DNA from: Flavobacteriales bacterium
Lineage (GTDB): Bacteria; Bacteroidota; Bacteroidia; JACJYZ01
Length of the DNA stretch: 64,000 nucleotides
Direction of reading: 5' to 3'
NCBI GenBank assembly: GCA_020635855.1
Contig: JACJYZ010000003.1
Location: 49,937-113,936, forward strand
The notes below the pieces were generated by a model that did not search any database, was not told where the DNA came from, and saw only the letters and a program-made list of their open reading frames with translations. The position numbers and the translations under genes were made by a program. Shown here in pieces: positions 2,294-19,360 of the stretch (position 1 is its first letter; every line of letters starts with the position of its first letter).

Positions 2294-2340
2294 AAGGCGT
2301 ATTCAAAATATCAGTATCCGTTTGTCATTCCTTGTGTGCT

Positions 2341-5300
2341 TCATGACAGTGGAATGTGCAATTCAACGCGGGTTCCTATGGGGAAACCTTCCGCATCGGT
2401 CAGGTCAATTATTTCAACGCTCAATGCCCCTTTCCGGTGCTCATTCAAAATATCGAGTCGTTCTTTGGTGATCGACATTCCCATGGATTTGTGTTGTTTT
2501 GTTCTCGACCCGACATTGATCTCGGCGGACTTTTGTCTGCCTATTCCATTGTCTTCAATCACGCACAGCAGGTTGTTTTGCTCCATGCGGATGTCAATGA
2601 TTAATTTTCCTTTTTCCGTTTTGTGCATCAGGCCATGCCAGATGGCATTTTCCACATAGGGTTGGATCAGCATCGATGGGATATTGGTGTGGTTTACGTC
2701 CACATCCTCGTGTACGATAACATGGTATTCGAACCGGTTTCCGAAACGCAATGATTCCAGGTCGAGGTAGAGGTTCAATGCTTCGAGTTCTTTCTCCAAC
2801 GGGATCAGCGATGGCTTTGAATTGTCGATCACATAGCGGATCAGCCTGGCGAATTTGGACAAGTACTTTTGGGAAGACTTGGGATCATTACCGGTGATGA
2901 AGTATTGAACGGAGTTGATCGTGTTGAAGATGAAATGCGGGTTCATTTGCGCACGCAACGCTTTGAGTTCGGCCACGGACATCCGGGTTTTTCGGATCAT
3001 CCTCAACCGCTCCTGCCTTTGAATCACTTTCAATCTGTAGCGGAAGGCAAGGCCGATCAAAAGGCCGATCACGCCCATACCAATGAGCCTCACCGTCCAC
3101 GTATTCCACCAGGCCGGCCGGATGGTGAATTCGAGTGTGGCGGGCGTAGCGCTAAGAAAACCATCGCTGTTCATGGCATACACCACGAACCGGTAGGTGC
3201 CTTCAGGAAGTGTTTGGTATTTTACGGAAGTGTTGGTGCCATAGGTCCAATTGCTGTCGAGTCCTTCCAGCATGTACTTGTATTCCAACTGTCCCGGATT
3301 TTTGTATGAAAGGCCGATGTAGCGGATGGTGACATCATTCTGGTTGTGCATGAGGGCCGTCATACGGGTGGAGCTGTCGGGCAGGTTCCCATTGATCAGC
3401 ACCTTGTTGATATATATGGGAGGTGGGGTTCGGTCGTTTTTGATGTTGTCGGGATCAAATACGGTGATGCCGTTGTTGTGTGCGAGCCAGAGACGATCTT
3501 CCCTGGGAACGATGAAGTTCACTTCGTTGGTAAGCAGCCCGTTCCCTGCATTGTATGTTTCAACCGTATACTGAAAAGGTGTGTAGCTGCTGACAGTTAT
3601 TTTGTTCAATCCGTTGTTGGTTCCCACCCAAACATGTTGGTCGCCATCAACATACAACGTGCGGCACATATTGCTTGACAGGCCATCGCTCCGGCGGATA
3701 CGTAGGTAGCGCTTGTTCAGCCTCACCAGGATACCTTCACCCCGGGTGGCCATCCAAAGCGCATCATGGGCTCCTTCCGCAAATTCCACGATTCTGGCGG
3801 CGAGCTCACCATTGCCTTTGTTGCCTTCATACCGAAGGGCATGTTGTTCGTTCAGGGTATATATCCCGTTGATCGTGCAGATCCAGATGGTTCCATCGTG
3901 ATCTTCATAAAGGTTGTCGGCATAATAGGGGATGGTATCAACCAGCAGTTTTTCATGTTGCAGGTTGGAGTCTGCTTTTAGCACGGCGCGGTATTTCAGC
4001 ATGAGGATGTGGCCATCCCGCAGCTGGATAATTTTTTTTATGCCTTTTTCATCTGATCTCCGGAATTCATTTGTTGACGGAAGGAAGGTGAAGCCGGCAT
4101 TCCCCGTTTCAATGTGCAGGTAGCGGTCACGGTCGTTCCACATATCGGTGATCTCATTCCATCCTGTGGGCAGAATCCGGCCCCAGTCGGGTTTGATTGT
4201 TTGAACACCATGTTGGTTGAGAAAGCTTACCTCCCCGCTCAGGTGTCCGGTGACGATGTTGTTCCGGAACCGGCGCATGCAGGTGATGCCGCTTTGGGTC
4301 AGGCCGTCATCGGGGGTGAAGTACCTCAGGTTGCGATGAGGTATGCAATAGATGCCATGCCCTTTGGTACATATCCAAAGATTGTTTTCGGTATCACGGC
4401 AGACACTGGTGATGATCTTTTCCTCCAGTTTCCCGAAAAGTTCCGGCGATTCGGCATCGTAGTCCCCGAAGATCCGAATGCCACGATAGGTACCCACATA
4501 GGTAATGTGTGGGGTGTCTGCCAGCAGAGAGATCACGATGTCGTCGAAATGCTTCATGCTGATCAGGCCATCCCGATTGAACGTAAAAACAACGTTGTTC
4601 ACCGATGCCAGGTAGTGGTCATCCATGCGGTGAACGATGCAGCGCCCGGGGCCTGACAGGTTGCTTTGGCCGGTGTTGATGGTATACGGAGGCTGGTTCT
4701 GTGTGTACACGTTCAGAAGCAGTTGTTTGCCGGAAGCGCCGCCATATACCTGCCCGCCCGATTGGGTTTGGTAGAGGTAGGAGCCTTTCCTTGGCAGCGT
4801 GATTGTATCCACGGCGGCATTTGAACCGGGCGAGACCCTGATCAGGTAGTAGGAGGAGGTGCCCAGCCAGATGGTATCTTTAGGGCCAATGTACATGGAG
4901 GTGATGACGTCCCTTTGAATGGTCCGGGTAAGCGTTTCGTTCGCAGCAATGGTGTGAATTTTCCCATCCGTATAGCTGAAATAGGAGAGTTTACCCAGGG
5001 AAGACTGGAACCAGATGTTGTGGTTTCGATCTTCATAAACGCCAAAAATGGTGTTGTCTGTCAGTCCGTTTTCGGTGGTGAAGTTCGTGAAATGATAACC
5101 ATCGAACCAGCTTACCCCCATGTCTGTGGCAAACCACATATACCCTTTCGAATCCTGCAGCATGCCATACACCTCGGAGGAAGGCAGCCCGTCTTTCACA
5201 TTGAAATTCCGGAACTGGTAGAATTGCGCAGCACCCGGGAGCGACCAGGCAAGAAAAACAACAAACCATAGGGCTATGAATGGCCTTCGATGGTTTGTCG

Positions 5301-5382
5301 CTAGATGTTTTACCCCCCTCGAATGGTCTGGCATGAAGGTGAATGATAAGCGATTTTGTCTGTACTTATGGTAGGGGGGCAT
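2341..5382 (-). CDS. Sensor histidine kinase, LytS/YehU-type (His_kinase + HATPase), with large periplasmic two-component-regulator-propeller repeats and a Y_Y_Y domain
   Basis: Signal/TM segment FIALWFVVFLAWSLPGAAQ. Repeated beta-propeller motifs (YMWFATDMG, IWFQSS, IWLGTS, LWICT, LWMATRGEG, VWVGTNNG). Y_Y_Y-like EYKYMLEGLDSNWTY. Second TM LIGMGVIGLLIGLAFRY. LytS-type kinase motif MNPHFIFNTINSV. ATP-binding IEDNGIG. Alternative ATG at 5334. Confidence 0.85.
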   Translation of the reverse strand: MPPYHKYRQNRLSFTFMPDHSRGVKHLATNHRRPFIALWFVVFLAWSLPGAAQFYQFRNFNVKDGLPSSEVYGMLQDSKGYMWFATDMGVSWFDGYHFTNFTTENGLTDNTIFGVYEDRNHNIWFQSSLGKLSYFSYTDGKIHTIAANETLTRTIQRDVITSMYIGPKDTIWLGTSSYYLIRVSPGSNAAVDTITLPRKGSYLYQTQSGGQVYGGASGKQLLLNVYTQNQPPYTINTGQSNLSGPGRCIVHRMDDHYLASVNNVVFTFNRDGLISMKHFDDIVISLLADTPHITYVGTYRGIRIFGDYDAESPELFGKLEEKIITSVCRDTENNLWICTKGHGIYCIPHRNLRYFTPDDGLTQSGITCMRRFRNNIVTGHLSGEVSFLNQHGVQTIKPDWGRILPTGWNEITDMWNDRDRYLHIETGNAGFTFLPSTNEFRRSDEKGIKKIIQLRDGHILMLKYRAVLKADSNLQHEKLLVDTIPYYADNLYEDHDGTIWICTINGIYTLNEQHALRYEGNKGNGELAARIVEFAEGAHDALWMATRGEGILVRLNKRYLRIRRSDGLSSNMCRTLYVDGDQHVWVGTNNGLNKITVSSYTPFQYTVETYNAGNGLLTNEVNFIVPREDRLWLAHNNGITVFDPDNIKNDRTPPPIYINKVLINGNLPDSSTRMTALMHNQNDVTIRYIGLSYKNPGQLEYKYMLEGLDSNWTYGTNTSVKYQTLPEGTYRFVVYAMNSDGFLSATPATLEFTIRPAWWNTWTVRLIGMGVIGLLIGLAFRYRLKVIQRQERLRMIRKTRMSVAELKALRAQMNPHFIFNTINSVQYFITGNDPKSSQKYLSKFARLIRYVIDNSKPSLIPLEKELEALNLYLDLESLRFGNRFEYHVIVHEDVDVNHTNIPSMLIQPYVENAIWHGLMHKTEKGKLIIDIRMEQNNLLCVIEDNGIGRQKSAEINVGSRTKQHKSMGMSITKERLDILNEHRKGALSVEIIDLTDAEGFPIGTRVELHIPLS

Positions 5383-5424: not shown

Positions 5425-5534
5425 TGTGTGTGACGGATGCTACTTGATAGCCCGGATGAAGGAGCAACCTTCGCCCACCGCATTCCAACATCAGGTATGA
5501 TGATAAAAGGCACGGATTGCAAATCCGCACCAGC
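5425..5534. repeat. Structured intergenic repeat, copy A (~110 nt)
   Basis: Aligns over its full length with copies B and C (GGATGCTNCGGGATNNCCGG-N-CGAAGG...CCTTCGCCCA-N-GATGNNAAGGCACGGATTGCAAATCCGCNCCAGC). Internal hairpins are kept by compensatory changes. Located between the OMP gene stop and the kinase start. Confidence 0.7.
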
Positions 5535-5568
5535 TACACGAACGTGAACGTACCCACCGGCAGGATAT

Positions 5569-6242: not shown

Positions 6243-6356
6243 GGTGAGGTGTGGCGGATGCTTCGGGATGACCGGGCGAAGGTGAAACCTTTGCCCAACG
6301 CATTGCCGGATCAAACGTGGCGATGAAAAGGCACGGATTACAAATCCGCGCCAGCG
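6243..6356. repeat. Structured intergenic repeat, copy B
   Basis: See copy A. Contains hairpins GGGCGAAGGT/ACCTTTGCCC and GGCACGGATT/AATCCGCGCC. Confidence 0.7.
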
Positions 6357-6632: not shown

Positions 6633-6745
6633 GGTGTGAGGTAGCGGATGCTACGGGATAGCCGGACGAAGGTACAACCTTCGCCCAACGGTTTGCTGAA
6701 TCAGATGTGACGATGTAAGGCACGAATTGCAAATCCGCGCCAGCG
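6633..6745. repeat. Structured intergenic repeat, copy C
   Basis: See copy A. Roughly 80% identical to copy B with stem-preserving substitutions. Confidence 0.7.
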
Positions 6746-6898
6746 CCACTAACATAAAACCGGCGACAACGACCCGCCACCTGCCCTCTAGCCGGGATAG
6801 CAGTGGAAAGGCACGCCTTGGCAGGGGTGGTGGCGATGGAGGCGGGACTTGCAACGGATAGCCCGACGGCAGTTGGAGAGAACGATAACCCGTCCGCT

Positions 6899-7561
6899 TC
6901 AGAAAGAATAGGAATAACTCACCCCGGTGATGAAAGACGTCCAGGGGTTCTTCACCTGCACTTCTTTGTTGATCATGTAAAACAGTTCTATGCTGCTGAA
7001 CTTGTTCAACTCATAGTCGACTCCGCCGCGAAAGCGCACCTTGGTGACCCACTCGTCCATGCGGTAGAAGATTTCCGATTCGAGGTAGGGCGTGTACTTC
7101 TTTTCCAGGTTGTATTTCAGGGTGAGGCGGCTGCGCAGGTAGTTCTTTGCAACATCGCCTTTTTCGCGGCGGTTGATGTCGTTGTAGCTCGACTGGTACC
7201 TTTCTCTCAGGACCAGGCTGAGGGGTTTGAACTTGATCTTGTAGGACAGGTCAATGTAATAGCGATGACGTTGGCTGTAGTGGTTGTCGGGTTCCCGTTC
7301 CTGCCCGAAACGATAGAAAGCGGAAGCCTCCAGGCGGCGCATGAGCTTGTATGAGCCGCCGATTTCGGTGAAGGCAGATCCCAGTTCGGATACATTCTCG
7401 TTCCAGCGGAGGGCCTGGCCAAGCTCAACGGAAAACGATTGTGTGAGCTTCTTTTTCGCTGAAGCTTGTAACCAGAGTCCGGCGTCTTTCACCTGCGCAT
7501 GGCAGATGACGGGGAGGACCAGCAGGCCGATAAAACAGGTTGCCAGCCGCCTATACCTCAT
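6899..7561 (-). CDS. DUF2490-like outer-membrane protein (predicted beta-barrel)
   Basis: Signal peptide MRYRRLATCFIGLLVLPVICHAQ. Y/R/K-rich amphipathic strands. C-terminal ...GVSYSYSF (aromatic terminal residue typical of OM beta-barrels). Start overlaps the upstream DUF4956 gene end by 11 nt. Confidence 0.5.
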   Translation of the reverse strand: MRYRRLATCFIGLLVLPVICHAQVKDAGLWLQASAKKKLTQSFSVELGQALRWNENVSELGSAFTEIGGSYKLMRRLEASAFYRFGQEREPDNHYSQRHRYYIDLSYKIKFKPLSLVLRERYQSSYNDINRREKGDVAKNYLRSRLTLKYNLEKKYTPYLESEIFYRMDEWVTKVRFRGGVDYELNKFSSIELFYMINKEVQVKNPWTSFITGVSYSYSF

Positions 7562-8174
7562 AGTAATAAATGCGGATGACAGCGGTGTCCCGGAGAAAGT
7601 CGACGCGGTGCAGGGTGATGCGGTTGATCTTGAGTCCGGTCCGTTGTTCCAGGTCTTTGATGAGTTCTTCGCGGTGTTCGGGTTTGATCATGTCTATGTT
7701 CTCATACTGGATGACCTTGGACGCTTCCTTCTTGATGAGGATGTTGCTTTCCAGCAGGTAGGTGACACCAATGATGATTGCGTTCAGTAAGATGAACTCG
7801 TCTGCGCTTCCCTTGGTGACGGCGGTCAGCAGACCGATGGCGATGACCAGAAACAGGTAGGTCATGTCTTTCATGGAGATGCCTTCGGTTCGGTATCGCA
7901 ACATGGAAAAGACGGCGAACAAGCCGAATGCGGCCCCCATGCTCATGTCTACCTTGTTGAGCAGGTAGGTGATCAGGAAGATGATCAGGTTGAAGATGAA
8001 GAACGTGAAGAAGTATTCCCGGTTGCGGTAGATGGGGTAGTAGATCAACCGAACCAGGACAAACACGGAGGCGAAATCCACGGCCAGCCTGACAAAAAAT
8101 TTCTCCGACAATTTATTGAAGAGGGTGAAGGCCTCTCTGGTGTTATCTTCGTTCAGTAGTTCAACGAGTAGCAT
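7551..8174 (-). CDS. DUF4956 domain membrane protein
   Basis: Four predicted TM helices in the N-terminal 130 aa (VRLAVDFASVFVLVRLIYY; FFTFFIFNLIIFLITYLL; MGAAFGLFAVFSMLRY; YLFLVIAIGLLTAV), then a soluble C-terminal domain. Family assignment from recalled DUF4956 signature. Start overlaps the VTC gene end by 14 nt. Confidence 0.6.
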   Translation of the reverse strand: MLLVELLNEDNTREAFTLFNKLSEKFFVRLAVDFASVFVLVRLIYYPIYRNREYFFTFFIFNLIIFLITYLLNKVDMSMGAAFGLFAVFSMLRYRTEGISMKDMTYLFLVIAIGLLTAVTKGSADEFILLNAIIIGVTYLLESNILIKKEASKVIQYENIDMIKPEHREELIKDLEQRTGLKINRITLHRVDFLRDTAVIRIYYYEV

Positions 8175-8919
8175 GTGCGAGTTTGTTTAATTGAGAGACC
8201 TTTAGCTTGAAATTGTTATGCTTGATGCCCTGGAAGAGGGCGATCACACCGAAACAATACTTGCTGACGGAGCCTTCCCTGATCTTGTATTTTTTCATGG
8301 CCCGGATGAAAGGGGAGGAGATGGAGTATTTCTCCTGCTTCACTTCTGCGATCACCAGGTTGTGTAGTTCGCGGGTGTCTTCGTCATTCCTGAATTGGAG
8401 ATCGAGGTCGATGGTGACCCGTTCGGTGGAATGTTTACTGACCAGCGTAATCCGCGAGTAATTTACCCAGATCTTTGCTTCCAGTTCCTCAGCGGGTAAA
8501 CTGGTTTTCTCCTTGAGCAGCACCTGCGCATGATCGGTGATCTTATCGTTGATCTGCGGTTGCTTCACCCGGTCTTTGATTGTACGGCCTTTGTTGTTTT
8601 TGAACTTCACCTCGAAGAAATTCAGTTCTGATTCCACATATTTCCGGAAGCGGATTTTGAACCGGTTCATTTTTCCCCGATGGTGGTTGTGGTACAGGTC
8701 GAATTCCGGGGTGTCGAAGTACAGCGACTCGTAGCGACTCACACGGTGGTGGTTCACTTCCAAGACCTGGTATTCGTCGCGAAGTTGGTCAAGGATGCCT
8801 GCCAGACGCGACAGCGGAAACACGAACTTGGTGTCTACACGGTTCATCAGCTTCACCCGGTCCATTTCTTCAAGAGAAACAGGATCAAATGTGTTCAGTA
8901 TGTCATGCAGCTGCTTCAT
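8161..8919 (-). CDS. VTC-domain protein (polyphosphate polymerase / CYTH-like tunnel domain)
   Basis: N-terminal ...MDRVKLMNRVDTKFVF... and K/R-rich beta-strand region (FKIRFRKYVESELNFFEVKFKNNKGRTIKDRVK), typical of bacterial VTC (Vtc4-like catalytic) domains. No signal peptide, so predicted cytoplasmic. Confidence 0.65.
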   Translation of the reverse strand: MKQLHDILNTFDPVSLEEMDRVKLMNRVDTKFVFPLSRLAGILDQLRDEYQVLEVNHHRVSRYESLYFDTPEFDLYHNHHRGKMNRFKIRFRKYVESELNFFEVKFKNNKGRTIKDRVKQPQINDKITDHAQVLLKEKTSLPAEELEAKIWVNYSRITLVSKHSTERVTIDLDLQFRNDEDTRELHNLVIAEVKQEKYSISSPFIRAMKKYKIREGSVSKYCFGVIALFQGIKHNNFKLKVSQLNKLAHATR

Positions 8920-8922
8920 GAA

Positions 8923-9486
8923 TCAGTATTCATACCTGTACTTCCGGGTTTGTTTCAGGGTGCCGTTTCCGTCGTATGTTTTCTTCTCGGTTTTCATGCC
9001 GTACTTGTCATACGTAAAAACAACTTTTTTGATCACCTTTCCTTCTGAATCATACGTCGTCTCCTGGGTTTTCTCTCCCATGGCGTTGTACGAGAATCCG
9101 GTTTTTTTCACCACGTTGCCCTTCCCGTCGTAGACCGTTTCCAGCTTGGGATCCTTCCCGTTGTATTCGGTGGTTTTGCGTTCTGCAACGGCGCCGGTTT
9201 CATCGTAGGTCACCTCCTCCACCTCGTCGTTGTTCTTGTTGTACTTGTGAGCTTTCTTCTCCTTCAGGCTGCCGTCTTTTGCGTATTCTTCCTTGGCGGT
9301 GACATTGGCGTTGGCATCGTATTTCTTAAACGACTCCGTGTGCTCTTTGTCCGTGCCGGCATCCACCACGGTAACGGTCACCGACCGGATGTGCAGTTTC
9401 TTCACATCCTTCTTGCTTTGTGCAAACACGTGACCGAAGGAACAGCAAGAAAGTGCGATGCAGAGATATAGGTATATGTAGCGCAT
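8923..9486 (-). CDS. Repeat lipoprotein (tandem ~23-aa TYD...G...K repeats)
   Basis: Signal/lipobox-like MRYIYLYLCIALSCCSF. At least 6 tandem repeats of the pattern (T)EYxxxG/KxxKKTxYDxxGxV. ATG at 9484-9486; the longer ORF start uses an upstream in-frame M. Confidence 0.5.
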   Translation of the reverse strand: MRYIYLYLCIALSCCSFGHVFAQSKKDVKKLHIRSVTVTVVDAGTDKEHTESFKKYDANANVTAKEEYAKDGSLKEKKAHKYNKNNDEVEEVTYDETGAVAERKTTEYNGKDPKLETVYDGKGNVVKKTGFSYNAMGEKTQETTYDSEGKVIKKVVFTYDKYGMKTEKKTYDGNGTLKQTRKYRYEY

Positions 9487-9499
9487 GGTCCGGAGGGTA

Positions 9500-9907
9500 T
9501 TAGTCAAAGATCACCAGGGTTCCCGCATCCGCCTGTTCTTTGTTTTCGGAGATGGTGACTTGCACCTGCACCGATGTGGTGAGGGAGGGGGAAGTCAGCG
9601 TGCTGTCTTTGGAGTACACATAAATGGTGTACTTGCCTTTTCGCAGGTATTTGAATTCGAACCGGCCGTCGGGAGAGGCCCTGAGCCTGTCGCTGTAACT
9701 GATGTCATCTCCGTAAATGATATACACATCCTCGTCTGCGCCGGGATATTCTCCATTCAGTACTGTGAAGCTGGGGTTGTAATCTTTCACCCAGATCATT
9801 CCTTTGATGCTGGCATTGCCTCCTTCACCCGCTTCCTTGGAACAGGCGGCAAAAAGTGAGGCCAGGAGTGCCAGCAGGGTGATGGATCGTATGTGGTTCT
9901 TTTTCAT
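9500..9907 (-). CDS. Small lipoprotein with carboxypeptidase-regulatory-like/transthyretin-like beta-sandwich
   Basis: MKKNHIRSITLLALLASLFAACSKE (lipobox LFAAC). Core DGRFEFKYLRKGKYTIYV resembles CarboxypepD_reg-like domains. The ORF track's longer start is a TTG codon. Confidence 0.5.
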   Translation of the reverse strand: MKKNHIRSITLLALLASLFAACSKEAGEGGNASIKGMIWVKDYNPSFTVLNGEYPGADEDVYIIYGDDISYSDRLRASPDGRFEFKYLRKGKYTIYVYSKDSTLTSPSLTTSVQVQVTISENKEQADAGTLVIFD

Positions 9908-9942
9908 GGATTGTATGTGTATCAAATTGGGTACTCCGAAGG

Positions 9943-12216
9943 TTATTTCATCACCACCAGTTTCAATGCCCGTGATTCATTTACGCGCACAAAGTAGATG
10001 CCGTTTGATAAGGTACGGATATCAACCGTTTCGGTAGAAGTACCGGTTGTTTTTTCCAGCACCTGTTCTCCCAGGTGGTTGTAGATGCGGATGGTGCGCA
10101 GGTCGCGCCCGTCCTCAAAATTCAAGCGGATGGTGGAGCCGGCAGGATTCGGATAACATTGAAAGGTGATGGCGGCCAGGTCTTCCACAGAGGAAGTCTT
10201 GCAGTTCGAATACCCATGACTTGTGTACGGCAATACCACAACCGGACCGGTACCGTTGGGGCATCGGCCTTCCGATACATCCGGCTGTTGGGGTCCGTAA
10301 CTGAGGCTGTCGATGATGGTGCCCGTGACCGATGACAGGATCAGGTGCTCACCTTCCGTGGCCAGTTTGAAATTGGCATGCAGGTAGTTTGGGATAGAAA
10401 CATCTTCATCGGCCCAGATGATGAGGTAGTCTTTCGGAGCGATGGTGGTACCCTGGGGAAAGGCGAACTTCTTAGGGTTCTCAATATCATCGCTCAGGTA
10501 CAACCCAAACAGGTCCACCGCGGAAGAGGTGGTGTTGTACAGTTCGATCCAGTCTTCACGGTCACCCGACTCGTCTTTCTCGCCACTTTGGTTGGAGGCG
10601 AGGTATTCGTTGATGGTCACATCGCCCGGATGGCTCACATCGATGTGGGCGGTGAGGGTGTAGAATTCATGTTCGGCACGTTCAGGTGAGAAAATACCCG
10701 CATCATTGTTCTCGGCGTAGATGTAGTACTGGGCCTGCAGCGATTGCATGTTGAAAGACGCACCATATATGCTGTCGCCGGCTGTGCCGTCGTTGTGGGC
10801 GCCGTCGTCATACATCTCCACGCGTGTGAACCGGTCGGTCAGACTATGGCGATAGCCCAGGTATACTGCAGTGCCGCCAGATACCCTGGCGGTGATGGTC
10901 ACCTGGCTGTTCAGGTCCGGGGCGGAGCTGCTAGCTTGTATGGATGTTACCCCAGGAGGAACGGCCTTGAATTCCGTGGTGGATTGCAGGTAGGTGACCC
11001 TGGCGTTCATCAGGTTGCCGATGCCCGGAATGGTGAGGCTGCCGTTGGCCACGTCGGCCGTCATGCCATTCTGAAAATCGCTGTATGAATAAAACTTGTT
11101 GGAGTCGGATTGCACGGAGGCATCGATCGTGGTTTGCATCTGTGCCGCCATCGATTCGTACGTGCTGTTGGCGAAGAACTCATTTGCGATGGTGCGGGCA
11201 TGCGCGATGTACATACGCTTGTACATCGGGATGGCCAGCAGGTTTTTGATCAGCGGCCAGTAAGTGTCGGTAGCGTGCAGCGTCAGGGGCAACTGCTGCA
11301 TGTTGGTGGGGGAGAGGGTGCCCAGGCTGCTGTTACCGCTGCCTGCAAAGGCAAATCCGCCGAACGACATGTTCAGGTCCCACACGATGGGATTGAAGCG
11401 GCCGGTCGCATCCTTGTATATGTAATAGTTCTGGCAGAAGGCGCCGCTGTAGCTGTCGAGGTTCACCAGGAGGTTGTCGAAGGCCAGCATCCACAGGGCC
11501 CGGTCGATGTCGAGCACGTTGTCGATGGCGTTCGGCACATTGGTGACGGTATCGCAGAGGTTTACCAGTTCATTCCATCCGAAATCCGACTTCAGCTCAT
11601 AAAAATTAAAATACTGTGAGCTGTCCGCCGACAGGTACCTCAGGCTGGCCTTGGTGGCCGGCGTGGGGTTTACGATGGGGTTGCATTTGACGAATGCATT
11701 CGAAGACGAGTAGAAGTGCGACGACAGGAATTGTTTGTTGATGCTCTCATCATTGGAATACACACCGATGTACCGGCCGTTGATGTAGAGTTCCGCAAAG
11801 TTCGACCGCGGGCAATCCATGTAATTCCCCAGCACGGCATACGACAACACCTCCCGGATCATGGAGGGGTCGGCGTAACCGTTCCCCAGCTTGATGTCCT
11901 TGATCCCCTGGTACGACTGGTTCTTGTAGGTGTCCAGCTCTATGTGGAGGGGATTTTTGATGTAGGTGGAATCGTACGAACTGTTGCCTTTGTACTTCAC
12001 ACCCACACTGTCTAACAGCGTTCCGTTGATGCGGATGGAATCGGCCATGGTGTACCCTTCGTTTCCGTACTTGGCGGTGTCCATGGCGAGATCCCAGTCG
12101 GGTTGTGAAAAGAACACTTCTATCTTTTGAAGCGTGTTCAGGTCATACAGATCGGTTTGCGCTTCAGATGAAAGAAAAAAGAAAACCAACAACACCAGGC
12201 TCGATACCCTTCTCAT
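9943..12216 (-). CDS. CotH-family atypical protein kinase with lamin-tail (LTD) domain and T9SS C-terminal sorting domain
   Basis: Signal peptide MRRVSSLVLLVFFFLSSEAQ. CotH core (ELYINGRYIGVYSNDESINKQFL ... WDLNMSFGGF). LTD-like VTINEYLASN...DWIELYNTTSSAVDLFGLYLSDD. CTD YPNPAGSTIRLNF...IYFVRVNESRALKLVVMK. Confidence 0.75.
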   Translation of the reverse strand: MRRVSSLVLLVFFFLSSEAQTDLYDLNTLQKIEVFFSQPDWDLAMDTAKYGNEGYTMADSIRINGTLLDSVGVKYKGNSSYDSTYIKNPLHIELDTYKNQSYQGIKDIKLGNGYADPSMIREVLSYAVLGNYMDCPRSNFAELYINGRYIGVYSNDESINKQFLSSHFYSSSNAFVKCNPIVNPTPATKASLRYLSADSSQYFNFYELKSDFGWNELVNLCDTVTNVPNAIDNVLDIDRALWMLAFDNLLVNLDSYSGAFCQNYYIYKDATGRFNPIVWDLNMSFGGFAFAGSGNSSLGTLSPTNMQQLPLTLHATDTYWPLIKNLLAIPMYKRMYIAHARTIANEFFANSTYESMAAQMQTTIDASVQSDSNKFYSYSDFQNGMTADVANGSLTIPGIGNLMNARVTYLQSTTEFKAVPPGVTSIQASSSAPDLNSQVTITARVSGGTAVYLGYRHSLTDRFTRVEMYDDGAHNDGTAGDSIYGASFNMQSLQAQYYIYAENNDAGIFSPERAEHEFYTLTAHIDVSHPGDVTINEYLASNQSGEKDESGDREDWIELYNTTSSAVDLFGLYLSDDIENPKKFAFPQGTTIAPKDYLIIWADEDVSIPNYLHANFKLATEGEHLILSSVTGTIIDSLSYGPQQPDVSEGRCPNGTGPVVVLPYTSHGYSNCKTSSVEDLAAITFQCYPNPAGSTIRLNFEDGRDLRTIRIYNHLGEQVLEKTTGTSTETVDIRTLSNGIYFVRVNESRALKLVVMK

Positions 12217-12223
12217 GCTTCAC

Positions 12224-13228
12224 TTATTCAATGATGAGTTTTTCTGCGGAAAATGAATGGTCGTCGTACAGCACGTGGATGAAGTAGGTGCCGGCGCTCA
12301 ATCCTTCGGCATCCACCCTGAATGTGTCTCCATCCACCTCGGCATACCTGCTTGACACACGGCCGAGCGCGTCTGTGATCACGACGGATTTGTTACCGGC
12401 CTTGTTCATGAACGACAAGGTAAAGGCACCGTGTGTGGGGTTCGGGTACACCTTGATGGGATGGGCCCGCAGCAGATCACGGATGCCGCTGGTGCTGCAA
12501 TCGCTGCAGCCGGCAAAGCACACCACGGGTAAAACCGAGTCGGCCGACAGGGTGATGGCGCGGTTTGAATTGGTGGCACATGCGCCGGGAACGGTCTCGG
12601 CCATGGATGTCATCTCACCATTGTAGTATTTGTATTCGTAGGTGCCGGATGTCACATAGCAGATCTTTTCATGCACATCTGCAGGTGCGGCATCGAAGTG
12701 GTAGAGGAAGTCGCTTTGGGTGTCCCAGGATTGGAAGTCGCCGGCCACGTGTGCGCCATCCGCATCCACGGTTTCTTTTTGCATATCCACCTGGAAGCGG
12801 AGCAGCAATTGGCCCTCGGGTGCATTTGAGGCGAAGACGATGTTGCCTATGAAGGTGGTGTCATCGGCGAGGGAGTCCACGTACAACCAACGGTTGTCGT
12901 TGAAGTCGTAACCCACCCGTGAGGGTTCGGGCACGAATTCGGCTTCGTAGAACTGGTCACCGTTCAGAAACTTGTACTCATACTTTTGGAAGGCGGGGAT
13001 GTCTACAACGATGCTGTAGATACCGCTGCTGTCTTCCTCGGTGAGGGGGGTGCATTCTGCGCACCAGTCGCTCGCGTATCCTGCCGCCACCTGGAAGTCG
13101 CCGGAGATATGCACACCGGTGGTATTCACAATCTCGTTGCGCATGTCCACCGCAAACTTCACTTTCTTCGCAAACAGGGAGCCTGTAAGTCCGACCAACA
13201 GGCATAGCATCGTACTGAATCGTTTCAT
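12224..13228 (-). CDS. Secreted protein with two tandem carbohydrate-binding-module-like domains and T9SS CTD
   Basis: Signal peptide MKRFSTMLCLLVGLTGSLFA. Two ~100-aa repeats (KVKFAVDMRNEIVNTTGVHISGDFQ... / LLLRFQVDMQKETVDADGAHVAGDFQSW...) resembling starch/glycan-binding beta-sandwich modules. CTD VYPNPTHGAFTLSF...YFIHVLYDDHSFSAEKLIIE. Confidence 0.5.
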   Translation of the reverse strand: MKRFSTMLCLLVGLTGSLFAKKVKFAVDMRNEIVNTTGVHISGDFQVAAGYASDWCAECTPLTEEDSSGIYSIVVDIPAFQKYEYKFLNGDQFYEAEFVPEPSRVGYDFNDNRWLYVDSLADDTTFIGNIVFASNAPEGQLLLRFQVDMQKETVDADGAHVAGDFQSWDTQSDFLYHFDAAPADVHEKICYVTSGTYEYKYYNGEMTSMAETVPGACATNSNRAITLSADSVLPVVCFAGCSDCSTSGIRDLLRAHPIKVYPNPTHGAFTLSFMNKAGNKSVVITDALGRVSSRYAEVDGDTFRVDAEGLSAGTYFIHVLYDDHSFSAEKLIIE

Positions 13229-13287
13229 AGGCGGGTGTTATTTCAGGCAGCGGAGGGCGATCACCCTCCGCTGCCTGGTGGAGAAGA

Positions 13288-14970
13288 TTATCTGGTTAAT
13301 ACAATTCTTTGTTGAACAGGCTGTGCATGTTCCGGCCGGATGATGATGGTGTACACACCGTTCTCGTATTCCGACATATCCACCTGGTAGAGGTTCTTGT
13401 TTTGCAGAACGGTTCTGCCGGCGGCATCCATCACATACAGGTCAAAGCGTTTGCCGGTCATTCCGGCATCTTTGATGTGTACAAGGCCTGTGGTGGGATT
13501 GGGGTAGATGTTGAAGTTCACTGTTTCTTCCGGCATATCCAGGCCGGTGACCAGGAAGTTGTAGCCGGTTGAATAGCTGTAGATGCAGCCGTTGGCATCC
13601 AGCACCCGCACCAGGTAAATTCCGTTTTCGGCCGGGGTATAGGTTTGGTTGGTGGCACCATTGATGGGTTGTCCGTTCAGGTACCATTGGTAGGCGGTTC
13701 CGGATGTGCTGCTCAGTGTGGCACCGTTCAGCGTGATCTGCGGAATGGTGGGTACGCTGCTGCTGACATAACACTCCGAGTAGCGCTGTGCCTGCGGAAC
13801 GGTTCCGCTTACTGTTTTTGACCAGATGGTGGTACCGTTGGGATCCACTTCATAGATGAGGCCTGAAGTAGCCATGCACACCTGCATGTTGCCGTTGGGC
13901 AGCTGCACGGAGTTGGCCATGTTGCTGCTGTAACCGTTACAGGCGTGCCGTTCGGTGTAGGTGGTCGGACTGTAAGCGGAGCCGAGGGTGATGTCATAGT
14001 TGTAGCCGTTCAGGGGAACGTCGATCTGGTCTACGGAAGACTTGGAAGATGACACGCCCCTGTTGTTGAATCCTACGAGGCGTCCGGCATTGGGCACGAA
14101 CTCGGGAATCCAGTGGGCATCGTGGGTCACGTCGAGTGCTGTTGATCCGGAAGCGCCGTACGATGACGGGTTGCCATAGCGGTAGAGGAAATCCCCGCCT
14201 TTACCGGCGTTGCCGCCGCTGTGTGAGGCTGCTTCGGAGGTGGTGGTGCTGTGGTCGATGATGAACCACATGTCCTGGTTGTGTGAGCTGAGGGCGATCT
14301 GATCAAGTACGGGATTGTAGTCGATGCCGTTCATGTGAAACCAGTCTTTACTGATGGAGAAGTTCACGTTCATTAATTCAGGGTGGTTCACAATGGAGCT
14401 TTGGTAATTGGGTTTGTTGGCATCCACATTTTGCAGGATGTGGTCCCAAAGGCGCCATTCCCATACCACGTTGCCGGTGGTGGCGCCGGTGGGTTGCACT
14501 TCCATGATCTTTTCACTCCATACGCTGCCGTTGTAGGTACAGCCGGCTGCGGCCACATCGGTGGAGGAGATCACGTCATAGGAAATCAGGAGTACGTTGC
14601 CGTTCGGCAGCGGACAGAAATCGTGATGGAGGCAGTAGGTGGAAGAGGAGTATGTGAAGTCCCACAGCACCGTTCCGTTCCAATCTACTTTTTGCACGCG
14701 GCCGGTCATGCCACCTCCATTGAGTGAATTGGAGTTGGTCAGTGAGCGCCACAGGATACCGCCGGGCATCAGGTAAATGGAATACCCGGTCTGGTCGGAT
14801 GAGTTGTGGTTCCATGTATGGTAGGTGGTACCTGCGGTATCAATCAGGTAGGTGGTGGAAGACCTTTGCACGCTATACAGGATATAGCCTGGATATTGCT
14901 GTGCTTTTGAGTCGGAAGATGCGAAAAGAAAGGCAATGCAGGCGATGCCCAAAAGTAGTTTTCGGTTCAT
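13288..14970 (-). CDS. Secreted beta-propeller protein (arylsulfotransferase/ASST-like fold) with T9SS CTD
   Basis: Start refined to the internal ATG (14968-14970) preceding signal peptide MNRKLLLGIACIAFLFASSDSKAQQ. The longer ORF N-terminus is an artefact running through a tandem repeat. Repeated W/H-containing blades (HMNGIDYN, DFLYRYGNPSSYG). CTD IYPNPTTGLVHIK...IVLTR. Confidence 0.45.
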   Translation of the reverse strand: MNRKLLLGIACIAFLFASSDSKAQQYPGYILYSVQRSSTTYLIDTAGTTYHTWNHNSSDQTGYSIYLMPGGILWRSLTNSNSLNGGGMTGRVQKVDWNGTVLWDFTYSSSTYCLHHDFCPLPNGNVLLISYDVISSTDVAAAGCTYNGSVWSEKIMEVQPTGATTGNVVWEWRLWDHILQNVDANKPNYQSSIVNHPELMNVNFSISKDWFHMNGIDYNPVLDQIALSSHNQDMWFIIDHSTTTSEAASHSGGNAGKGGDFLYRYGNPSSYGASGSTALDVTHDAHWIPEFVPNAGRLVGFNNRGVSSSKSSVDQIDVPLNGYNYDITLGSAYSPTTYTERHACNGYSSNMANSVQLPNGNMQVCMATSGLIYEVDPNGTTIWSKTVSGTVPQAQRYSECYVSSSVPTIPQITLNGATLSSTSGTAYQWYLNGQPINGATNQTYTPAENGIYLVRVLDANGCIYSYSTGYNFLVTGLDMPEETVNFNIYPNPTTGLVHIKDAGMTGKRFDLYVMDAAGRTVLQNKNLYQVDMSEYENGVYTIIIRPEHAQPVQQRIVLTR

Positions 14971-15067: not shown

Positions 15068-15110
15068 CCCATTTCCACAGCGCCAGTTCCAATTTCCACA
15101 GCGCCAGTTC
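15068..15110. repeat. Perfect tandem duplication of a 21-nt unit (TTTCCACAGCGCCAGTTCCAA x2) ~100 nt upstream of the 13288-14970 gene start
   Basis: Direct reading: cacccatttccacagcgccagttccaatttccacagcgccagttccaataag. Confidence 0.8.
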
Positions 15111-15248
15111 CAATAAGATACAAAATGTTAACAGAAGTTTAATTTGGGGTGGCCGAAAAATGAAGGGCGGATATGCCAACGTCGCGGAATGCCCGTTGGG
15201 GCATCAAATTCACCCGATGGGGTTTTCGTATCACCCGATGATTTTTTT

Positions 15249-16522: not shown

Positions 16523-18055
16523 CTAGCGATTCAGAATCAGGCGTTGCACCTTCTCTTCTCCTGTGAGTGTTTTAACCTTGATCAGGTACAGGCCTTGTTT
16601 CATGCCCGTCAGATCCAAGGTTGATTGCCGGCCGTTCAGATCAAGTTGCTTGACGATCTTCCCTGTGATATCCATCACTTGTACTTGTGCCATTTGGTCA
16701 TCACCGGTCAGTTCCATGTTGAAGATACCGGATGAAGGATTGGGATGAACATTCAGCTGAACAGCACTTTCAGCTGTGCTGATGCCGTCTGTTTTGCCTG
16801 AAGCATCCAGGTCCAGTGACAGGTCCCATGTACGCAGTTGCAATTGCTCGTCTGCATTGGTATATGCCGTAACAAAATACTGATCATACAGAATGGAGCT
16901 GGTTGACAATTGACAGGTACGTAACTGTTTGGCATATTCTCCGGATAACAATAGGTTTCCGGCAAGGTCAACCGAACTGGAATTGGTGTTGTAAACACTG
17001 ATCCTTATACCTTTTAGCCATTCTCTGTCTACCGTCACAAACCGGCCGTTGGAACCTGAGCCTTGCGCGATCACCGCATTATCCGGGGCGGGAGCTCCTT
17101 CAAGATCGGAATAGAGTTCTCCGGAATCAGCTTGCCTGAGCACCGAACCTGATGAGTAAACATTCCAGCGGATGGATTTCAGTTTTCCGTTGCTCTGACG
17201 AACAGTTGTCATGACTGCCAGTTGGTTGAGACGTGTAACGCTCACCGAGCTTATCGAATAAGCGCCATTTACATAAACGACAGTAGGTGTTCCGGAACTG
17301 CTGATGGTCACGCCCAAAACAACCAGGTTTGATGTGGCATCATCCCCGTAGCAAACAACCATTTTTGAAGGATTCACAGCAACACCGGTCAAGCTATATC
17401 CCACGTTATTAGCTGCGAAGGAAGTTTGCCCTACCTGCTGCAGATTGCCAGAGCTGGTCACGTCGTACACCGTGATATCAAGGTCAAACCCTGTTGATGA
17501 TTTCGATAGAACGGCAAAGCGATCATCATCCACTTTCAGAATATTATATTCTTTTTTGGCACCGAAGGAGATGCTTCCCCTGCGAATGATGTATCCGGCA
17601 GAGCTGATATCCCATACTTCAATGAGTTTGTTGTTGTATGTGGTTGACCACGTCCCGCTTATTGTAACAATCCGCGACTCGGACAGTACAGCGGCTTTGA
17701 CCACTTCAATTTCAGGACCAGGGGAGGTTTGCGTATCCCACAGGCTGATGTTTGTTGCTCCTGTGGTGATGTTCCAGGTTGACAGGGAGAGCTTGTTGTT
17801 AACGTTTCGGTAGGGCGTAACTACCCGTTCGGAATTGAGGCGCAACACGTCAAGCTGTTTCCCATATGCATAAATGTTATCTTCTGTTGTACTTACAATG
17901 CCGCCAAGTGCACTTCCCTTCGGGTTGATGTTTACATCCTGTGCGTAGGTGGTGGCCATTGCCATTGCGGAGATGGTCACTGCCAACAGAAAGCGTTTGT
18001 TCAGGCATTCCTCAACCCTACTGGCGGGCCTGGAGTTTTTGTAAAATAGTTTCAT
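16523..18055 (-). CDS. Secreted hypothetical protein (Ser/Thr-rich, beta-rich) with T9SS CTD
   Basis: Signal peptide region ...KRFLLAVTISAMAMATTYAQ. CTD HPNPSSGIFNMEL...LYLIKVKTLTGEEKVQRLILNR. Confidence 0.5.
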   Translation of the reverse strand: MKLFYKNSRPASRVEECLNKRFLLAVTISAMAMATTYAQDVNINPKGSALGGIVSTTEDNIYAYGKQLDVLRLNSERVVTPYRNVNNKLSLSTWNITTGATNISLWDTQTSPGPEIEVVKAAVLSESRIVTISGTWSTTYNNKLIEVWDISSAGYIIRRGSISFGAKKEYNILKVDDDRFAVLSKSSTGFDLDITVYDVTSSGNLQQVGQTSFAANNVGYSLTGVAVNPSKMVVCYGDDATSNLVVLGVTISSSGTPTVVYVNGAYSISSVSVTRLNQLAVMTTVRQSNGKLKSIRWNVYSSGSVLRQADSGELYSDLEGAPAPDNAVIAQGSGSNGRFVTVDREWLKGIRISVYNTNSSSVDLAGNLLLSGEYAKQLRTCQLSTSSILYDQYFVTAYTNADEQLQLRTWDLSLDLDASGKTDGISTAESAVQLNVHPNPSSGIFNMELTGDDQMAQVQVMDITGKIVKQLDLNGRQSTLDLTGMKQGLYLIKVKTLTGEEKVQRLILNR

Positions 18056-19236: not shown

Positions 19237-19360
19237 TGGGAATTTTATGATTTGGTTTAGTGGTGATGAGGTTCTGGCCCGTACCATTGTTCTGATGTTA
19301 ATAAGTATTTGATTCCACCATGGATTTACGCTCTCCGAAATTCTATTTTTGTTCGGAGAG

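Follow-up and report, generated by a model that had tools for sequence, protein, structure and literature searches.

Layout of the locus and its gene products

Positions 6899–14970 of the window (the whole 64,000-nt stretch of DNA that was analyzed, from an uncultured Flavobacteriales bacterium) hold eight co-directional, tightly packed minus-strand genes, whose coordinates and junctions we read from the sequence. From gene 1 to gene 8 the successive junctions measure +59, +7, +35, +13, +3, −14, and −11 nt, with the DUF4956 start overlapping the VTC stop by 14 nt and the DUF2490 start overlapping the DUF4956 stop by 11 nt. An earlier note on this DNA had counted seven genes; the count is corrected to eight, while the tight packing that it described (gaps of 3–59 nt, overlaps of 11–14 nt) stands. 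A consensus scan placed a terminator-like hairpin followed by a T-run on the minus strand at 6762–6781, 118 nt past the last stop codon, and this element is probably the end of the transcription unit. The scan found no terminator-like site in the minus-strand intergenic gaps of 6899–14970, and the remaining minus-strand matches there all lie within coding sequence and are weaker (5–7 pairs, 3 G-C pairs).

Domain calls were made with the Pfam and NCBIfam profile libraries, and all the family assignments proposed earlier hold. The first three genes encode predicted type IX secretion system (T9SS) cargo. Gene 1 (13288–14970, 560 aa) matches Pfam Arylsulfotrans (3.7e-18), Arylsulfotran_2 (4.5e-9), and Por_Secre_tail (2.1e-10) as well as NCBIfam TIGR04183, which refines the previously noted beta-propeller cargo to the arylsulfotransferase (ASST) family; the product is predicted to be secreted and to combine a beta-propeller with an Ig-like domain and, at its C terminus, a T9SS sorting domain, and its relatives in 14 loci show a median identity of 55%. 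Gene 2 (12224–13228, 334 aa) matches X25_BaPul_like (6.9e-8) and Por_Secre_tail (7.5e-12) and, below Pfam cutoffs, AMPK1_CBM (1.3e-4) and CBM_48 (1.8e-4). Its product, for which no sequence relative was found in the PDB, is predicted to be secreted and to carry two X25/CBM48-like modules of the alpha-glucan-binding type ahead of a T9SS sorting domain. Gene 3 (9943–12216, 757 aa) falls in the CotH family (3.4e-45) and carries the expected lamin-tail (LTD, 6.8e-20) and T9SS (Por_Secre_tail, 1e-12) domains, predicting a cell-surface or secreted enzyme with a CotH kinase fold. The best solved relative is Bacillus cereus CotH (5jd9; 8e-9), and Asp254 and Asp280 align with Asp228 and Asp251 of B. 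subtilis CotH, whose mutation inactivates the kinase (PMC7821199). Both positions are at least 95% conserved among 25 Bacteroidota CotH domains.

Genes 4, 5, and 8 encode predicted envelope proteins. The 135-aa product of gene 4 (9500–9907) has a lipobox (...FAAC) and a "C-KKEAGEGG" motif kept in orthologues, and is predicted to be a small lipoprotein with a beta-sandwich domain, whose domain matches are weak (fn3_3, 5e-5; Y_Y_Y, 8e-5; CarboxypepD_reg, 0.03). Of the transthyretin-like lipoprotein described earlier, the lipoprotein part is thus upheld by the conserved motif, whereas the transthyretin-like fold is tentative, given the weakness of the fn3_3 and CarboxypepD_reg matches. The product of gene 5 (8923–9486, 187 aa) consists of about nine Lys-rich, YD-type beta-hairpin repeats of 12–14 residues; it belongs to no Pfam family and has faint matches to MORN_2 (0.058) and RHS_repeat (0.42). 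Its 74 orthologues have a median pI of 9.2 and 18% Lys. At E≤1e-10 it has relatives among 410 cluster representatives, and giant multi-repeat proteins carry the repeat as well. The signal peptide (...FAQ-SKK) is of the signal-peptidase-I type and lacks a lipobox Cys, a lipobox pattern being present in 9 of the 74 orthologues; the protein is probably soluble and periplasmic, so that the YD-type repeats of the earlier description are retained and its lipoprotein label is not. Gene 8 (6899–7561, 220 aa), predicted to encode an outer-membrane beta-barrel with a signal peptide, matches Pfam DUF2490 (1.1e-23) and, weakly, the KdgM porin family (4.7e-4; 20.3 bits against a cutoff of 22), and its signal sequence, ...AQ-V(N/K)DAGLW, is conserved. 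DUF2490 has been described as an outer-membrane barrel family, a subset of which reportedly has a lumen filled by a buried charge network (bioRxiv 10.64898/2026.07.29.741452); such a filling speaks against an open pore. Little weight can be put on the basic pI of the repeat protein and of the barrel, because an unrelated neighboring outer-membrane protein is equally basic. Together, the predicted localization of the eight products covers cytoplasm, inner membrane, periplasm, outer membrane, and surface, bearing out the earlier proposal that the parts reach from the cytoplasm to the cell surface.

Upstream of gene 1 by 100–140 nt, at 15070–15111 on the minus strand, lies a tandem direct repeat of 2 × 21 nt (GGAACTGGCGCTGTGGAAAT[T/G]). 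Among 13 related loci, 10 likewise show a 21-nt spacing in the best direct repeat ahead of the ASST gene, a spacing seen in 20% of 390 control windows (binomial P 1.6e-5). By analogy with AgrA-type sites, the repeat is a candidate binding site for a LytTR-type regulator. Downstream of the operon, and on the same strand, Pfam identifies a Reg_prop/Y_Y_Y/LytS-type histidine kinase (2341–5382) and a receiver-LytTR response regulator (1538–2293). In 12 related loci, homologous kinase-regulator pairs share the strand of the cluster and lie within it or beside it; two further loci have a response regulator at the contig edge, and one (L090) has another kinase-regulator pair whose regulator is LytTR-type by Pfam. 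The kinase and regulator at 1538–5382 are therefore candidates for control of the operon.

The VTC and DUF4956 proteins

The product of gene 6 (8161–8919, 252 aa) belongs to the VTC family (Pfam VTC 9.6e-30; 104 bits against a cutoff of 23), as had been proposed, and has 6344 homologues. Its AlphaFold2 model (pLDDT 85, pTM 0.82) adopts the expected triphosphate-tunnel fold, and in a Foldseek search against the PDB the top 13 matches are yeast Vtc4, Vtc3, and Vtc2 (E about 1e-11, TM 0.6), with YgiF and other triphosphate tunnel metalloenzymes (TTMs) ranking below them. Lys31, Arg90, Arg92, and Lys105 align in sequence with Lys200, Arg264, Arg266, and Lys281 of Vtc4, and their equivalents are invariant in 20 VTC homologues. 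Gene 6 is predicted to encode a cytoplasmic triphosphate-tunnel enzyme and is a candidate polyphosphate polymerase; the conservation of the Vtc4 catalytic residues strengthens the phosphate-polymer idea of the earlier note. Against this idea, no bacterial VTC-domain protein is known from biochemistry to make polyphosphate, and the other TTMs, which also appear in the fold search, are hydrolases or cyclases.

Gene 7 (7551–8174, 207 aa) encodes a DUF4956 protein (Pfam 3.4e-54) predicted to lie in the inner membrane, with 4–5 helices and a small C-terminal beta-alpha-beta-beta domain. No other protein of the cluster is as well conserved (median identity 66%, maximum 77%), and VTC comes second. 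The two genes adjoin or overlap in 70 of 80 Bacteroidota loci, and the adjacency extends, in either gene order, to Deinococcota (Deinococcus), Alphaproteobacteria (Aminobacter, Shinella, and Nitratireductor), and Chloroflexota-like contigs, making the pair the invariant unit across phyla. This adjacency, together with the high conservation of both proteins, fits a physical VTC-DUF4956 complex. We detected no homology between DUF4956 and the VTC transmembrane (DUF202) domain (hhalign probability 0.15%), and the DUF4956 model, which is poor (pLDDT 63.5), matches no solved channel; a conduit role for DUF4956 is thus pure analogy.

Conservation of gene order

We surveyed 80 related Bacteroidota loci, of which the 60 with enough upstream sequence were used to count CotH. 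The conserved core comprises the lipoprotein, the repeat protein, VTC, DUF4956, and DUF2490, beginning with gene 4. The two signal-peptide proteins and the outer-membrane barrel keep a fixed order in 58–68 of the 80 loci (gene 4 is adjacent in 65, gene 5 in 68, and gene 8 in 58), and linkage persists even in a rearranged paralogous module, in which VTC is convergent to the other four core genes. CotH, which immediately precedes the core in 31 of the 60 loci, is a frequent but optional partner; the earlier core, which included CotH and left out DUF2490, is revised on both points. ASST, X25, and CotH precede the core in the full eight-gene order in 14 related loci. Dozens of genomes repeat the same order, so the arrangement is not peculiar to this one and is far beyond chance.

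Across phyla, Cthe_2159 proteins and two-component systems lie near the VTC-DUF4956 pair, as do CotH and phosphate-handling genes. In Gram-positive bacteria the cotH-VTC-DUF4956 triad has been reported, without a mechanism, as an accessory unit of pel operons (bioRxiv 10.1101/768473; PMC12345266), and the same co-occurrence has been described in Clostridium perfringens NELoc-2 (PMC2879425). Survey and literature thus agree with the earlier statement that it is recurrent, and the Bacteroidota envelope version appears to be undescribed.

A possible envelope-spanning polyphosphate system

The reading that we favor, although we would place it somewhat short of an even chance, is that 6899–14970 is one operon for an envelope-spanning polyphosphate synthase/translocase system that feeds envelope and surface enzymes. 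The VTC enzyme would dock on the DUF4956 membrane protein, to which it is translationally coupled, and build polyphosphate from the gamma-phosphate of ATP on the cytoplasmic side of the inner membrane; as the chain grows, it would pass outward through DUF4956 or beside it. Three Bacteroidota additions (the YD-repeat protein with its many Lys residues, the DUF2490 barrel, and the small lipoprotein) would handle the polyanion in the periplasm and at the outer membrane, and the T9SS-delivered CotH kinase, two-module glucan-binding-type protein, and ASST-like transferase would bind, use, or modify it, polyphosphate possibly serving as phosphoryl donor in a compartment without ATP. We know of no protein kinase, CotH included, that uses polyphosphate as donor. 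The LytS/LytTR-type two-component system would probably drive transcriptional control through the 21-nt-spaced direct repeats.

Phosphate scavenging and storage, which we consider unlikely, would instead keep the polyphosphate cytoplasmic and membrane-anchored and export nothing; the barrel would be an uptake channel for anions or phosphoesters, the periplasmic proteins would be binders, and the surface enzymes would release or capture phosphorylated substrates. The fold and residues of VTC suit a polymerase wherever its chain ends up, and two loci (L089 and L091) carry the pair alone, without an envelope partner. The pair also lies beside a PiT transporter and a phytase-like esterase in Nitratireductor, Aminobacter, and Shinella and beside a HAD acid phosphatase and phnDCE in Deinococcus QL22, but the proteobacterial neighbors also fit a periplasmic store that is hydrolyzed and then re-imported. 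Furthermore, Pfam and NCBIfam searches recognized no inner-membrane phosphate importer in the Bacteroidota cluster, CotH has the fold and the intact catalytic residues of a kinase, not those of a phosphatase, and the strict linkage of a cytoplasmic enzyme to two periplasmic proteins and an outer-membrane barrel is simpler as a single trans-envelope path.

We regard it as improbable that VTC is instead a tripolyphosphatase, NTP hydrolase, or nucleotide cyclase that, with a ligand-sensing DUF4956 C-terminal domain, forms a membrane signaling or regulatory unit for CotH activity or polysaccharide output. TTM enzymes are functionally diverse (PMC4641920), and YgiF, CYTH cyclases, and thiamine triphosphatase do match the VTC model (E 1e-5 to 3e-9); the best structural matches, however, consistently belong to the VTC polymerase subfamily, and the four Vtc4 residues are invariant. 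An ACT domain has been proposed for the streptococcal DUF4956 homologue, yet the ACT-like matches in our DUF4956 C-terminus do not reach significance (best E 0.07, TM about 0.2). Two-component systems are common among the neighbors, which suits a signaling unit. In Streptococcus intermedius, deletion of the DUF4956 or CotH homologue lowered Pel-dependent aggregation by >50%, in favor of the envelope-spanning polyphosphate system, whereas deletion of the VTC homologue SIR_1593 had no reported effect on aggregation, which counts against it; loss of the DUF4956 homologue raised Pel levels, again with no reported effect for VTC, in line with a regulatory unit (PMC12345266).

It is similarly improbable that ASST, the CBM-like protein, and CotH are mere neighbors of the five-gene core, sharing ancestry among related MAGs rather than function: T9SS cargo genes are abundant in the genome (the window holds a GH16 protein, a 510-aa protein, and an M4 peptidase besides), about half of the related loci lack all three, with an SBBP propeller, DUF4114-like, PorP/SprF, PGI-like, DUF420, or other cargo or unrelated genes in the CotH slot, and the sampled loci are all Bacteroidota and therefore not independent, but CotH also accompanies the pair in unrelated phyla that secrete proteins by other routes (Deinococcus in our survey; Firmicutes, Actinobacteria, and Clostridium in bioRxiv 10.1101/768473, PMC12345266, and PMC2879425), the ASST-X25-CotH-core order holds down to 53% VTC identity, and junctions of 7–59 nt leave little space for separate promoters.

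Yeast Vtc4 is the closest fold relative of the gene 6 product, which retains the Vtc4 catalytic set, and the proposed DUF4956 route is modeled on the coupling of synthesis to translocation in the eukaryotic VTC complex. The yeast vacuole combines VTC with a polyphosphatase and a phosphate exporter, a set paralleled by the phosphate-gene neighbors of the bacterial pair.

Organization and probable regulation of the eight-gene operon

Eight genes occupy positions 6899-14970 on the minus strand, in the order ASST-like (13288-14970), X25/CBM-like (12224-13228), CotH (9943-12216), a 135-aa lipoprotein (9500-9907), a 187-aa repeat protein (8923-9486), VTC (8161-8919), DUF4956 (7551-8174) and DUF2490 (6899-7561). 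From the ASST-like gene to DUF2490 the junctions measure +59, +7, +35, +13, +3, -14 and -11 nt, in agreement with the gaps and overlaps described in an earlier note made from the sequence alone; that note had counted seven genes where there are eight. No terminator-like site was found in the intergenic gaps of the operon, the other minus-strand matches being weaker and located within coding sequences, and a hairpin with a T-run lies downstream of DUF2490, the last gene (6781-6762, minus strand). A sigma-70 promoter scan was set aside: it returned 3 sites versus 7.9 expected, and the tool does not cover Bacteroidota promoters.

The 755-nt gap downstream of the DUF2490 gene is occupied by two copies of a repeated intergenic element of ~100-115 nt, which occurs at 5452-5548, 6243-6355 and 6633-6758 (plus-strand coordinates; copies 77-78% identical) and as a core-only copy at 1516-1538. 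Every copy contains the 23-nt palindrome GGCACGGATT[A/G]CAAATCCGCGCC (four matches versus none expected from shuffles), which on the minus strand reads as a hairpin followed by TTTT, a terminator-like arrangement just 3' of minus-strand genes. Directly 3' of the DUF2490 stop codon, on the opposite (plus) strand, positions 6786-6872 score 43.6 bits against the Flavo-1 RNA motif (Rfam RF01705; gathering score 42, E = 1e-7).

A Reg_prop/Y_Y_Y/LytS-type kinase (2341-5382) and a receiver-LytTR regulator (1538-2293) are encoded downstream of the operon on the same strand. In 12 related loci a homologous kinase-regulator pair stands within the cluster or next to it, and in two more the regulator sits at a contig edge. 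LytTR regulators bind direct repeats at about 21-nt spacing, and a 2 x 21-nt tandem direct repeat (15111-15070) lies within the 343 nt upstream of the ASST-like gene. The spacing recurs in related loci, where the best direct repeat upstream of the ASST gene is spaced by 21 nt in 10 of 13 cases versus 20% of 390 control windows (P = 1.6e-5). We infer that the LytTR regulator acts on the 21-nt repeats of the operon.

The encoded proteins

The VTC protein matches Pfam PF09359 along the entire profile (1-235 of 235; 104.3 bits versus a cutoff of 23, E = 9.6e-30). When its AF2 model (pLDDT 85, pTM 0.82) was compared with the PDB by Foldseek, ranks 1-13 were all tunnel domains of yeast Vtc4, Vtc3 and Vtc2 (E 1e-11 to 1.5e-9, TMq 0.54-0.64), followed by YgiF and other triphosphate-tunnel enzymes. 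A HMMER alignment to 3g3q_A, in which C-terminal Vtc4 residues such as E426 could not be placed, puts K31, R90, R92 and K105 on Vtc4 K200, R264, R266 and K281, and all four are invariant among 20 homologues. In Vtc4 these are reportedly the basic tunnel residues that Hothorn et al. found in 2009 to be required for activity. The protein is 252 aa long and consists of the VTC domain alone, with neither an SPX domain nor DUF202-type transmembrane helices. Judged from alignment and model, it appears to be an active enzyme; no activity report for a bacterial VTC-domain protein was found in the literature searched. Textbooks attribute bacterial polyphosphate to PPK1 and PPK2, with VTC polymerase seen as a eukaryotic enzyme.

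The adjoining gene encodes a DUF4956 protein (Pfam DUF4956, 3.4e-54), and homologue counts for the two are 6344 (VTC) and 6395 (DUF4956). The AF2 model of DUF4956 was of poor quality (pLDDT 63.5), its input alignment being shallow, and had no significant Foldseek match in the PDB, with weak ACT-like matches to the last ~58 residues only. A streptococcal homologue has been described as MgtC+ACT (PMC12345266), a description not confirmed for the window protein by Pfam, which at E<=10 returned DUF4956 alone. Homology between DUF4956 and the VTC transmembrane domain was also considered and rejected: hhalign comparison of the DUF4956 alignment with yeast Vtc1 (sequence identical to 8i6v_A) gave a probability of 0.15%, leaving analogy only.

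The 135-aa protein is a lipoprotein with the conserved motif 'C-KKEAGEGG', for which weak profile matches hint at a beta-sandwich domain. The 187-aa protein comprises approximately nine 'YDxxG...K' repeats of 12-14 residues and matches no Pfam family, with faint MORN_2 and RHS_repeat matches; repeats of this type occur widely (410 representatives at E<=1e-10, giant multi-repeat proteins included). Its 74 orthologues are rich in lysine (18% Lys, pI 9.2), and because their signal peptide ('FAQ|SKK') is an ordinary one that lacks a lipobox, we do not retain the lipoprotein label that the earlier note had given it. The DUF2490 protein (PF10677; 1.1e-23, 84.3 bits versus a cutoff of 29.8) has a conserved N-terminus ('...AQ|VNDAGLW') corresponding to a Sec signal peptide, as well as a weak, full-length KdgM porin match (4.7e-4) that falls below the Pfam cutoff. 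The family has been described as an outer-membrane barrel with a buried charge network in a subset of its members (bioRxiv 10.64898/2026.07.29.741452). The charge of the repeat protein and of the barrel was down-weighted as evidence for polyanion binding because an unrelated neighbouring outer-membrane protein is equally basic.

The CotH protein combines a CotH domain (PF08757; 3.4e-45, 155.4 bits versus a cutoff of 23.8) with an LTD (6.8e-20) and a T9SS tail, and its nearest solved relative by sequence is B. cereus CotH 5jd9 (8e-9). Residues D254 and D280 align with the catalytic D228 and metal-binding D251 of B. subtilis CotH, mutation of which inactivates the kinase (PMC7821199), and both are at least 95% conserved among 25 Bacteroidota CotH domains. 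CotH, too, looks like an active enzyme on the basis of these residues. The ASST-like protein (Pfam Arylsulfotransferase, 3.7e-18) and the X25/CBM-like protein (X25_BaPul_like, 6.9e-8, with weak CBM48/AMPK-CBM matches) share with CotH the Por_Secre_tail/TIGR04183 C-terminal domain of type A T9SS cargo. Pfam identified no CotB/CotG-type Ser-rich substrate genes in the cluster. PDB sequence searches with the ASST-like, X25-like, repeat and DUF2490 proteins gave no usable relatives, and NCBIfam recognised the T9SS tails only, with no models for the five core proteins. The family assignments of the earlier note (VTC, DUF4956, DUF2490, CotH with LTD, the CBM-like protein and the T9SS tails) were all recovered by Pfam HMM searches, and for VTC the fold and the retained basic residues point the same way.

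T9SS cargo is dense in this genome. Elsewhere in the window, all on the minus strand, lie a GH16 protein with a tail (421-1494), a 510-aa protein whose sole recognisable part is a T9SS tail (16523-18055) and an M4 thermolysin-like peptidase with PKD domains and a T9SS tail (35404-38709). The window also contains a restriction-modification pair, consisting of a C5 cytosine methylase (19349-20644, plus strand) and an endonuclease with an EcoRII-C domain (21038-22249, minus strand), and a giant ORF of 3227 aa (25640-35323, plus strand) with at least eight Calx-beta domains, Laminin_G_3 and G8.

Gene neighbourhoods in Bacteroidota and other phyla

A genome scan found 473 loci, 80 of which were fetched, all of them Bacteroidota-like; because the peptide patterns used were Bacteroidota-specific, the scan sampled that phylum only. 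Searching the ORFs of the fetched loci with the window proteins showed DUF4956 adjoining VTC in 70/80 loci, with the repeat protein, the lipoprotein and DUF2490 as VTC neighbours in 68, 65 and 58 of the 80, respectively; loci short of a core neighbour are mostly contig ends. The conserved core therefore comprises the lipoprotein, the repeat protein, VTC, DUF4956 and DUF2490, a five-gene unit in Bacteroidota for which no description was found in the literature searched. Median identities to the window proteins are 66% for DUF4956, 61% for VTC, 58% for CotH, 55% for ASST, 48% for the lipoprotein, 47% for X25, 46% for the repeat protein and 33% for DUF2490. Seven MAGs have a second VTC locus, in which VTC is mostly convergent to the lipoprotein, repeat protein, DUF4956 and DUF2490 genes; since these second copies keep VTC near the other four, core linkage outlasts both rearrangement and duplication. 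In the numbering of the fetched loci, second loci L061, L064, L066, L067, L075 and L081 belong to MAGs that also carry L045, L035, L028, L027 and L022, and further two-locus MAGs hold L004/L068 and L015/L070. VTC genes 52-57% identical to that of the window also occur on contigs of MAGs labelled as an archaeon (Methanoperedens; L058, L059), a gammaproteobacterium (Hydrocarboniphaga; L072) and a verrucomicrobium (Akkermansia; L082), the last two with Bacteroidota-type neighbours, and probably reflect binning contamination, not transfer.

Upstream sequence exceeds 3 kb in 60 loci, and in 31 of these CotH directly precedes the core; the full order of ASST, X25, CotH and core is kept in 14 loci, down to a VTC identity of 53%. 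One variant combines a CotH protein of ~1030 aa (LTD, CHB_HEX_C, CotH and T9SS tail) with a second CotH of ~500 aa; loci without CotH there often have other T9SS cargo or PorP/SprF in its place, and sometimes an unrelated gene.

Wider contexts were sampled on a small scale, from five annotated plasmid or chromid loci and nine contigs. Plasmid p_TS293_4 of Deinococcus taeanensis (L083) carries CotH, VTC and DUF4956 together with no pel genes nearby, so that the co-occurrence of these three genes, which the earlier note had described as recurrent, is indeed found beyond this genome, both there and in the 31 related loci. Deinococcus QL22 has VTC and DUF4956 beside a HAD acid phosphatase and phnDCE, and Aminobacter, Shinella and Nitratireductor have DUF4956 and VTC with a phytase-like esterase, a PiT phosphate transporter lying in between in Nitratireductor. 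The pair is adjacent in 8 of the 9 further contigs and stands alone in two. One contig (L090, 8583-13125) adds DUF2490, two Cthe_2159 proteins and a LytS/LytTR system; two others (L094, 4919-6763; L095, 5044-6888), one of them Anaerolineales-labelled, add Cthe_2159 and an OmpR-type regulator, with the histidine kinase present in one and the other ending before it. A further contig pairs VTC and DUF4956 with another two-component system and has a CotH gene 6.6 kb away, and a Runella contig has no DUF4956, its VTC gene coming after that of a CHU_C protein. VTC with DUF4956 is therefore the invariant unit, usually accompanied by a secreted protein, phosphate-handling genes and a two-component system. 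The Cthe_2159 genes flanking the pair, of a beta-helix, carbohydrate-binding type, suggest a second class of secreted partner besides CotH.

Proposed function and comparison with known systems

The reading that we prefer, to which we give somewhat less than an even chance, is that the cluster is a bacterial counterpart of the VTC machine, joining synthesis, outward passage, and envelope and surface proteins. The observation made in the earlier note thus stands, and its interpretation is supported in part. The tunnel enzyme, bound to DUF4956, would polymerise the gamma-phosphate of ATP at the membrane, and the resulting polyphosphate chain would be handed outward. In Bacteroidota the chain would be received by the basic repeat protein, the lipoprotein and the DUF2490 barrel, and CotH with its LTD, the glucan-binding-type protein and the ASST-like transferase, delivered to the surface by T9SS, may act on or with it. 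The phytase-like esterase and PiT neighbours in proteobacteria are compatible with a store in the periplasm that undergoes hydrolysis and re-import, a set paralleled in the yeast vacuole by VTC, polyphosphatases and a phosphate exporter. Several observations count against this model: no relationship of DUF4956 to the VTC membrane helices could be detected and its own structure prediction is poor, some DUF2490 barrels may be plugged, and deletion of the VTC gene SIR_1593 in S. intermedius produced no reported change (PMC12345266).

Among the alternatives, phosphate scavenging with cytoplasmic storage fares best, although we consider it unlikely. It is less likely again that the tunnel enzyme is no polymerase and forms a signalling unit with DUF4956, a reading that the two-component systems near the pair favour and the retained Vtc4-type tunnel residues speak against. 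That the T9SS genes are mere neighbours of the core seems equally improbable, and the linkage of CotH to the pair in unrelated phyla speaks against it.

A bolder form of the VTC-machine model, in which the tunnel polymerase and DUF4956 extrude polyphosphate across the inner membrane, in Bacteroidota onward by a dedicated route through periplasm and outer membrane, and the polymer supplies energy and phosphoryl groups to secreted CotH kinases that phosphorylate surface glycans or proteins where ATP is lacking, strikes us as a long shot. Thousands of bacterial genomes encode a VTC-domain enzyme in which the Vtc4 residues are retained and which is firmly tied to a membrane partner. Were the pair an active synthase and translocase, bacteria would have a third way of making polyphosphate as well as a source of it in the periplasm or at the surface, and secreted CotH kinases could draw on a phosphoryl donor. 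The last, if true, would account for the accessory genes found in Gram-positive pel biofilm loci and in a virulence locus of C. perfringens, and the module looks amenable to experiment.

Compared with the eukaryotic VTC complex (yeast Vtc4/Vtc3/Vtc2/Vtc1; PDB 3g3q/3g3r, 7ytj, 8i6v), the window enzyme shares the Pfam catalytic domain, the tunnel fold, equivalents of K200, R264, R266 and K281 and an obligatory pairing with a membrane component; synthesis may likewise be coupled to transfer out of the cytoplasm. In contrast to yeast, it lacks SPX, its catalytic and membrane parts are separate polypeptides, and the partner is DUF4956, without detectable homology to the DUF202 helices of Vtc1. The destination would be the bacterial periplasm or surface, with additional periplasmic, outer-membrane and T9SS parts.

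In Gram-positive pel operons, cotH, a 'polyphosphate polymerase' and DUF4956, together with DUF4832, form an accessory block (Whitfield et al., bioRxiv 10.1101/768473). As in S. intermedius SIR_1594-1591 (PMC12345266), the three families are close neighbours, CotH being secreted and the VTC protein cytoplasmic; in the window they share one operon, with cotH and VTC parted by two extra genes. Deletion of SIR_1592 (DUF4956) or SIR_1594 (CotH) reduced aggregation by >50% in sputum medium and altered Pel levels (PMC12345266). Unlike the pel block, the window has a T9SS-exported CotH with a lamin-tail domain, adds DUF2490, the lipoprotein and the YD-repeat protein, and lacks DUF4832; Pfam found neither DUF4832 nor pel-type genes among the flanking genes and most larger ORFs of the 64-kb window. 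The statement in the same mBio 2025 paper that CotH/VTC/DUF4956 synteny was not found outside pel loci (PMC12345266) is contradicted by the window, the 31 related loci and Deinococcus taeanensis.

Bacillus spore-coat CotH (5jd9/5jda) has the same Pfam domain and the retained catalytic and metal-binding Asp residues, whereas the window protein belongs to a non-sporulating phylum, is directed by T9SS to the cell surface, carries an extra LTD and has no CotB/CotG-type substrates nearby. In C. perfringens NELoc-2, VTC-domain genes are each followed by a gene for a ~225-aa membrane protein and adjoin a CotH gene (PMC2879425). That Gram-positive locus differs from the window in its duplicated pair with a resolvase between, its link to a chitin-synthase-like glycosyltransferase and its absence of outer-membrane and T9SS parts. 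Its membrane protein, annotated 'tubulin/FtsZ', is presumably DUF4956. The DUF2490 protein resembles the KdgM/NanC acidic-oligosaccharide porins in being a small outer-membrane barrel with a signal peptide and a weak KdgM match, but in some DUF2490 barrels a charge network is predicted to fill the lumen. BT3498-99 of Bacteroides thetaiotaomicron are annotated as DUF4956 and DUF2490 (PMC10434189). The gene association is already on record, and the envelope-spanning variant linked to T9SS and DUF2490 appears to be new.
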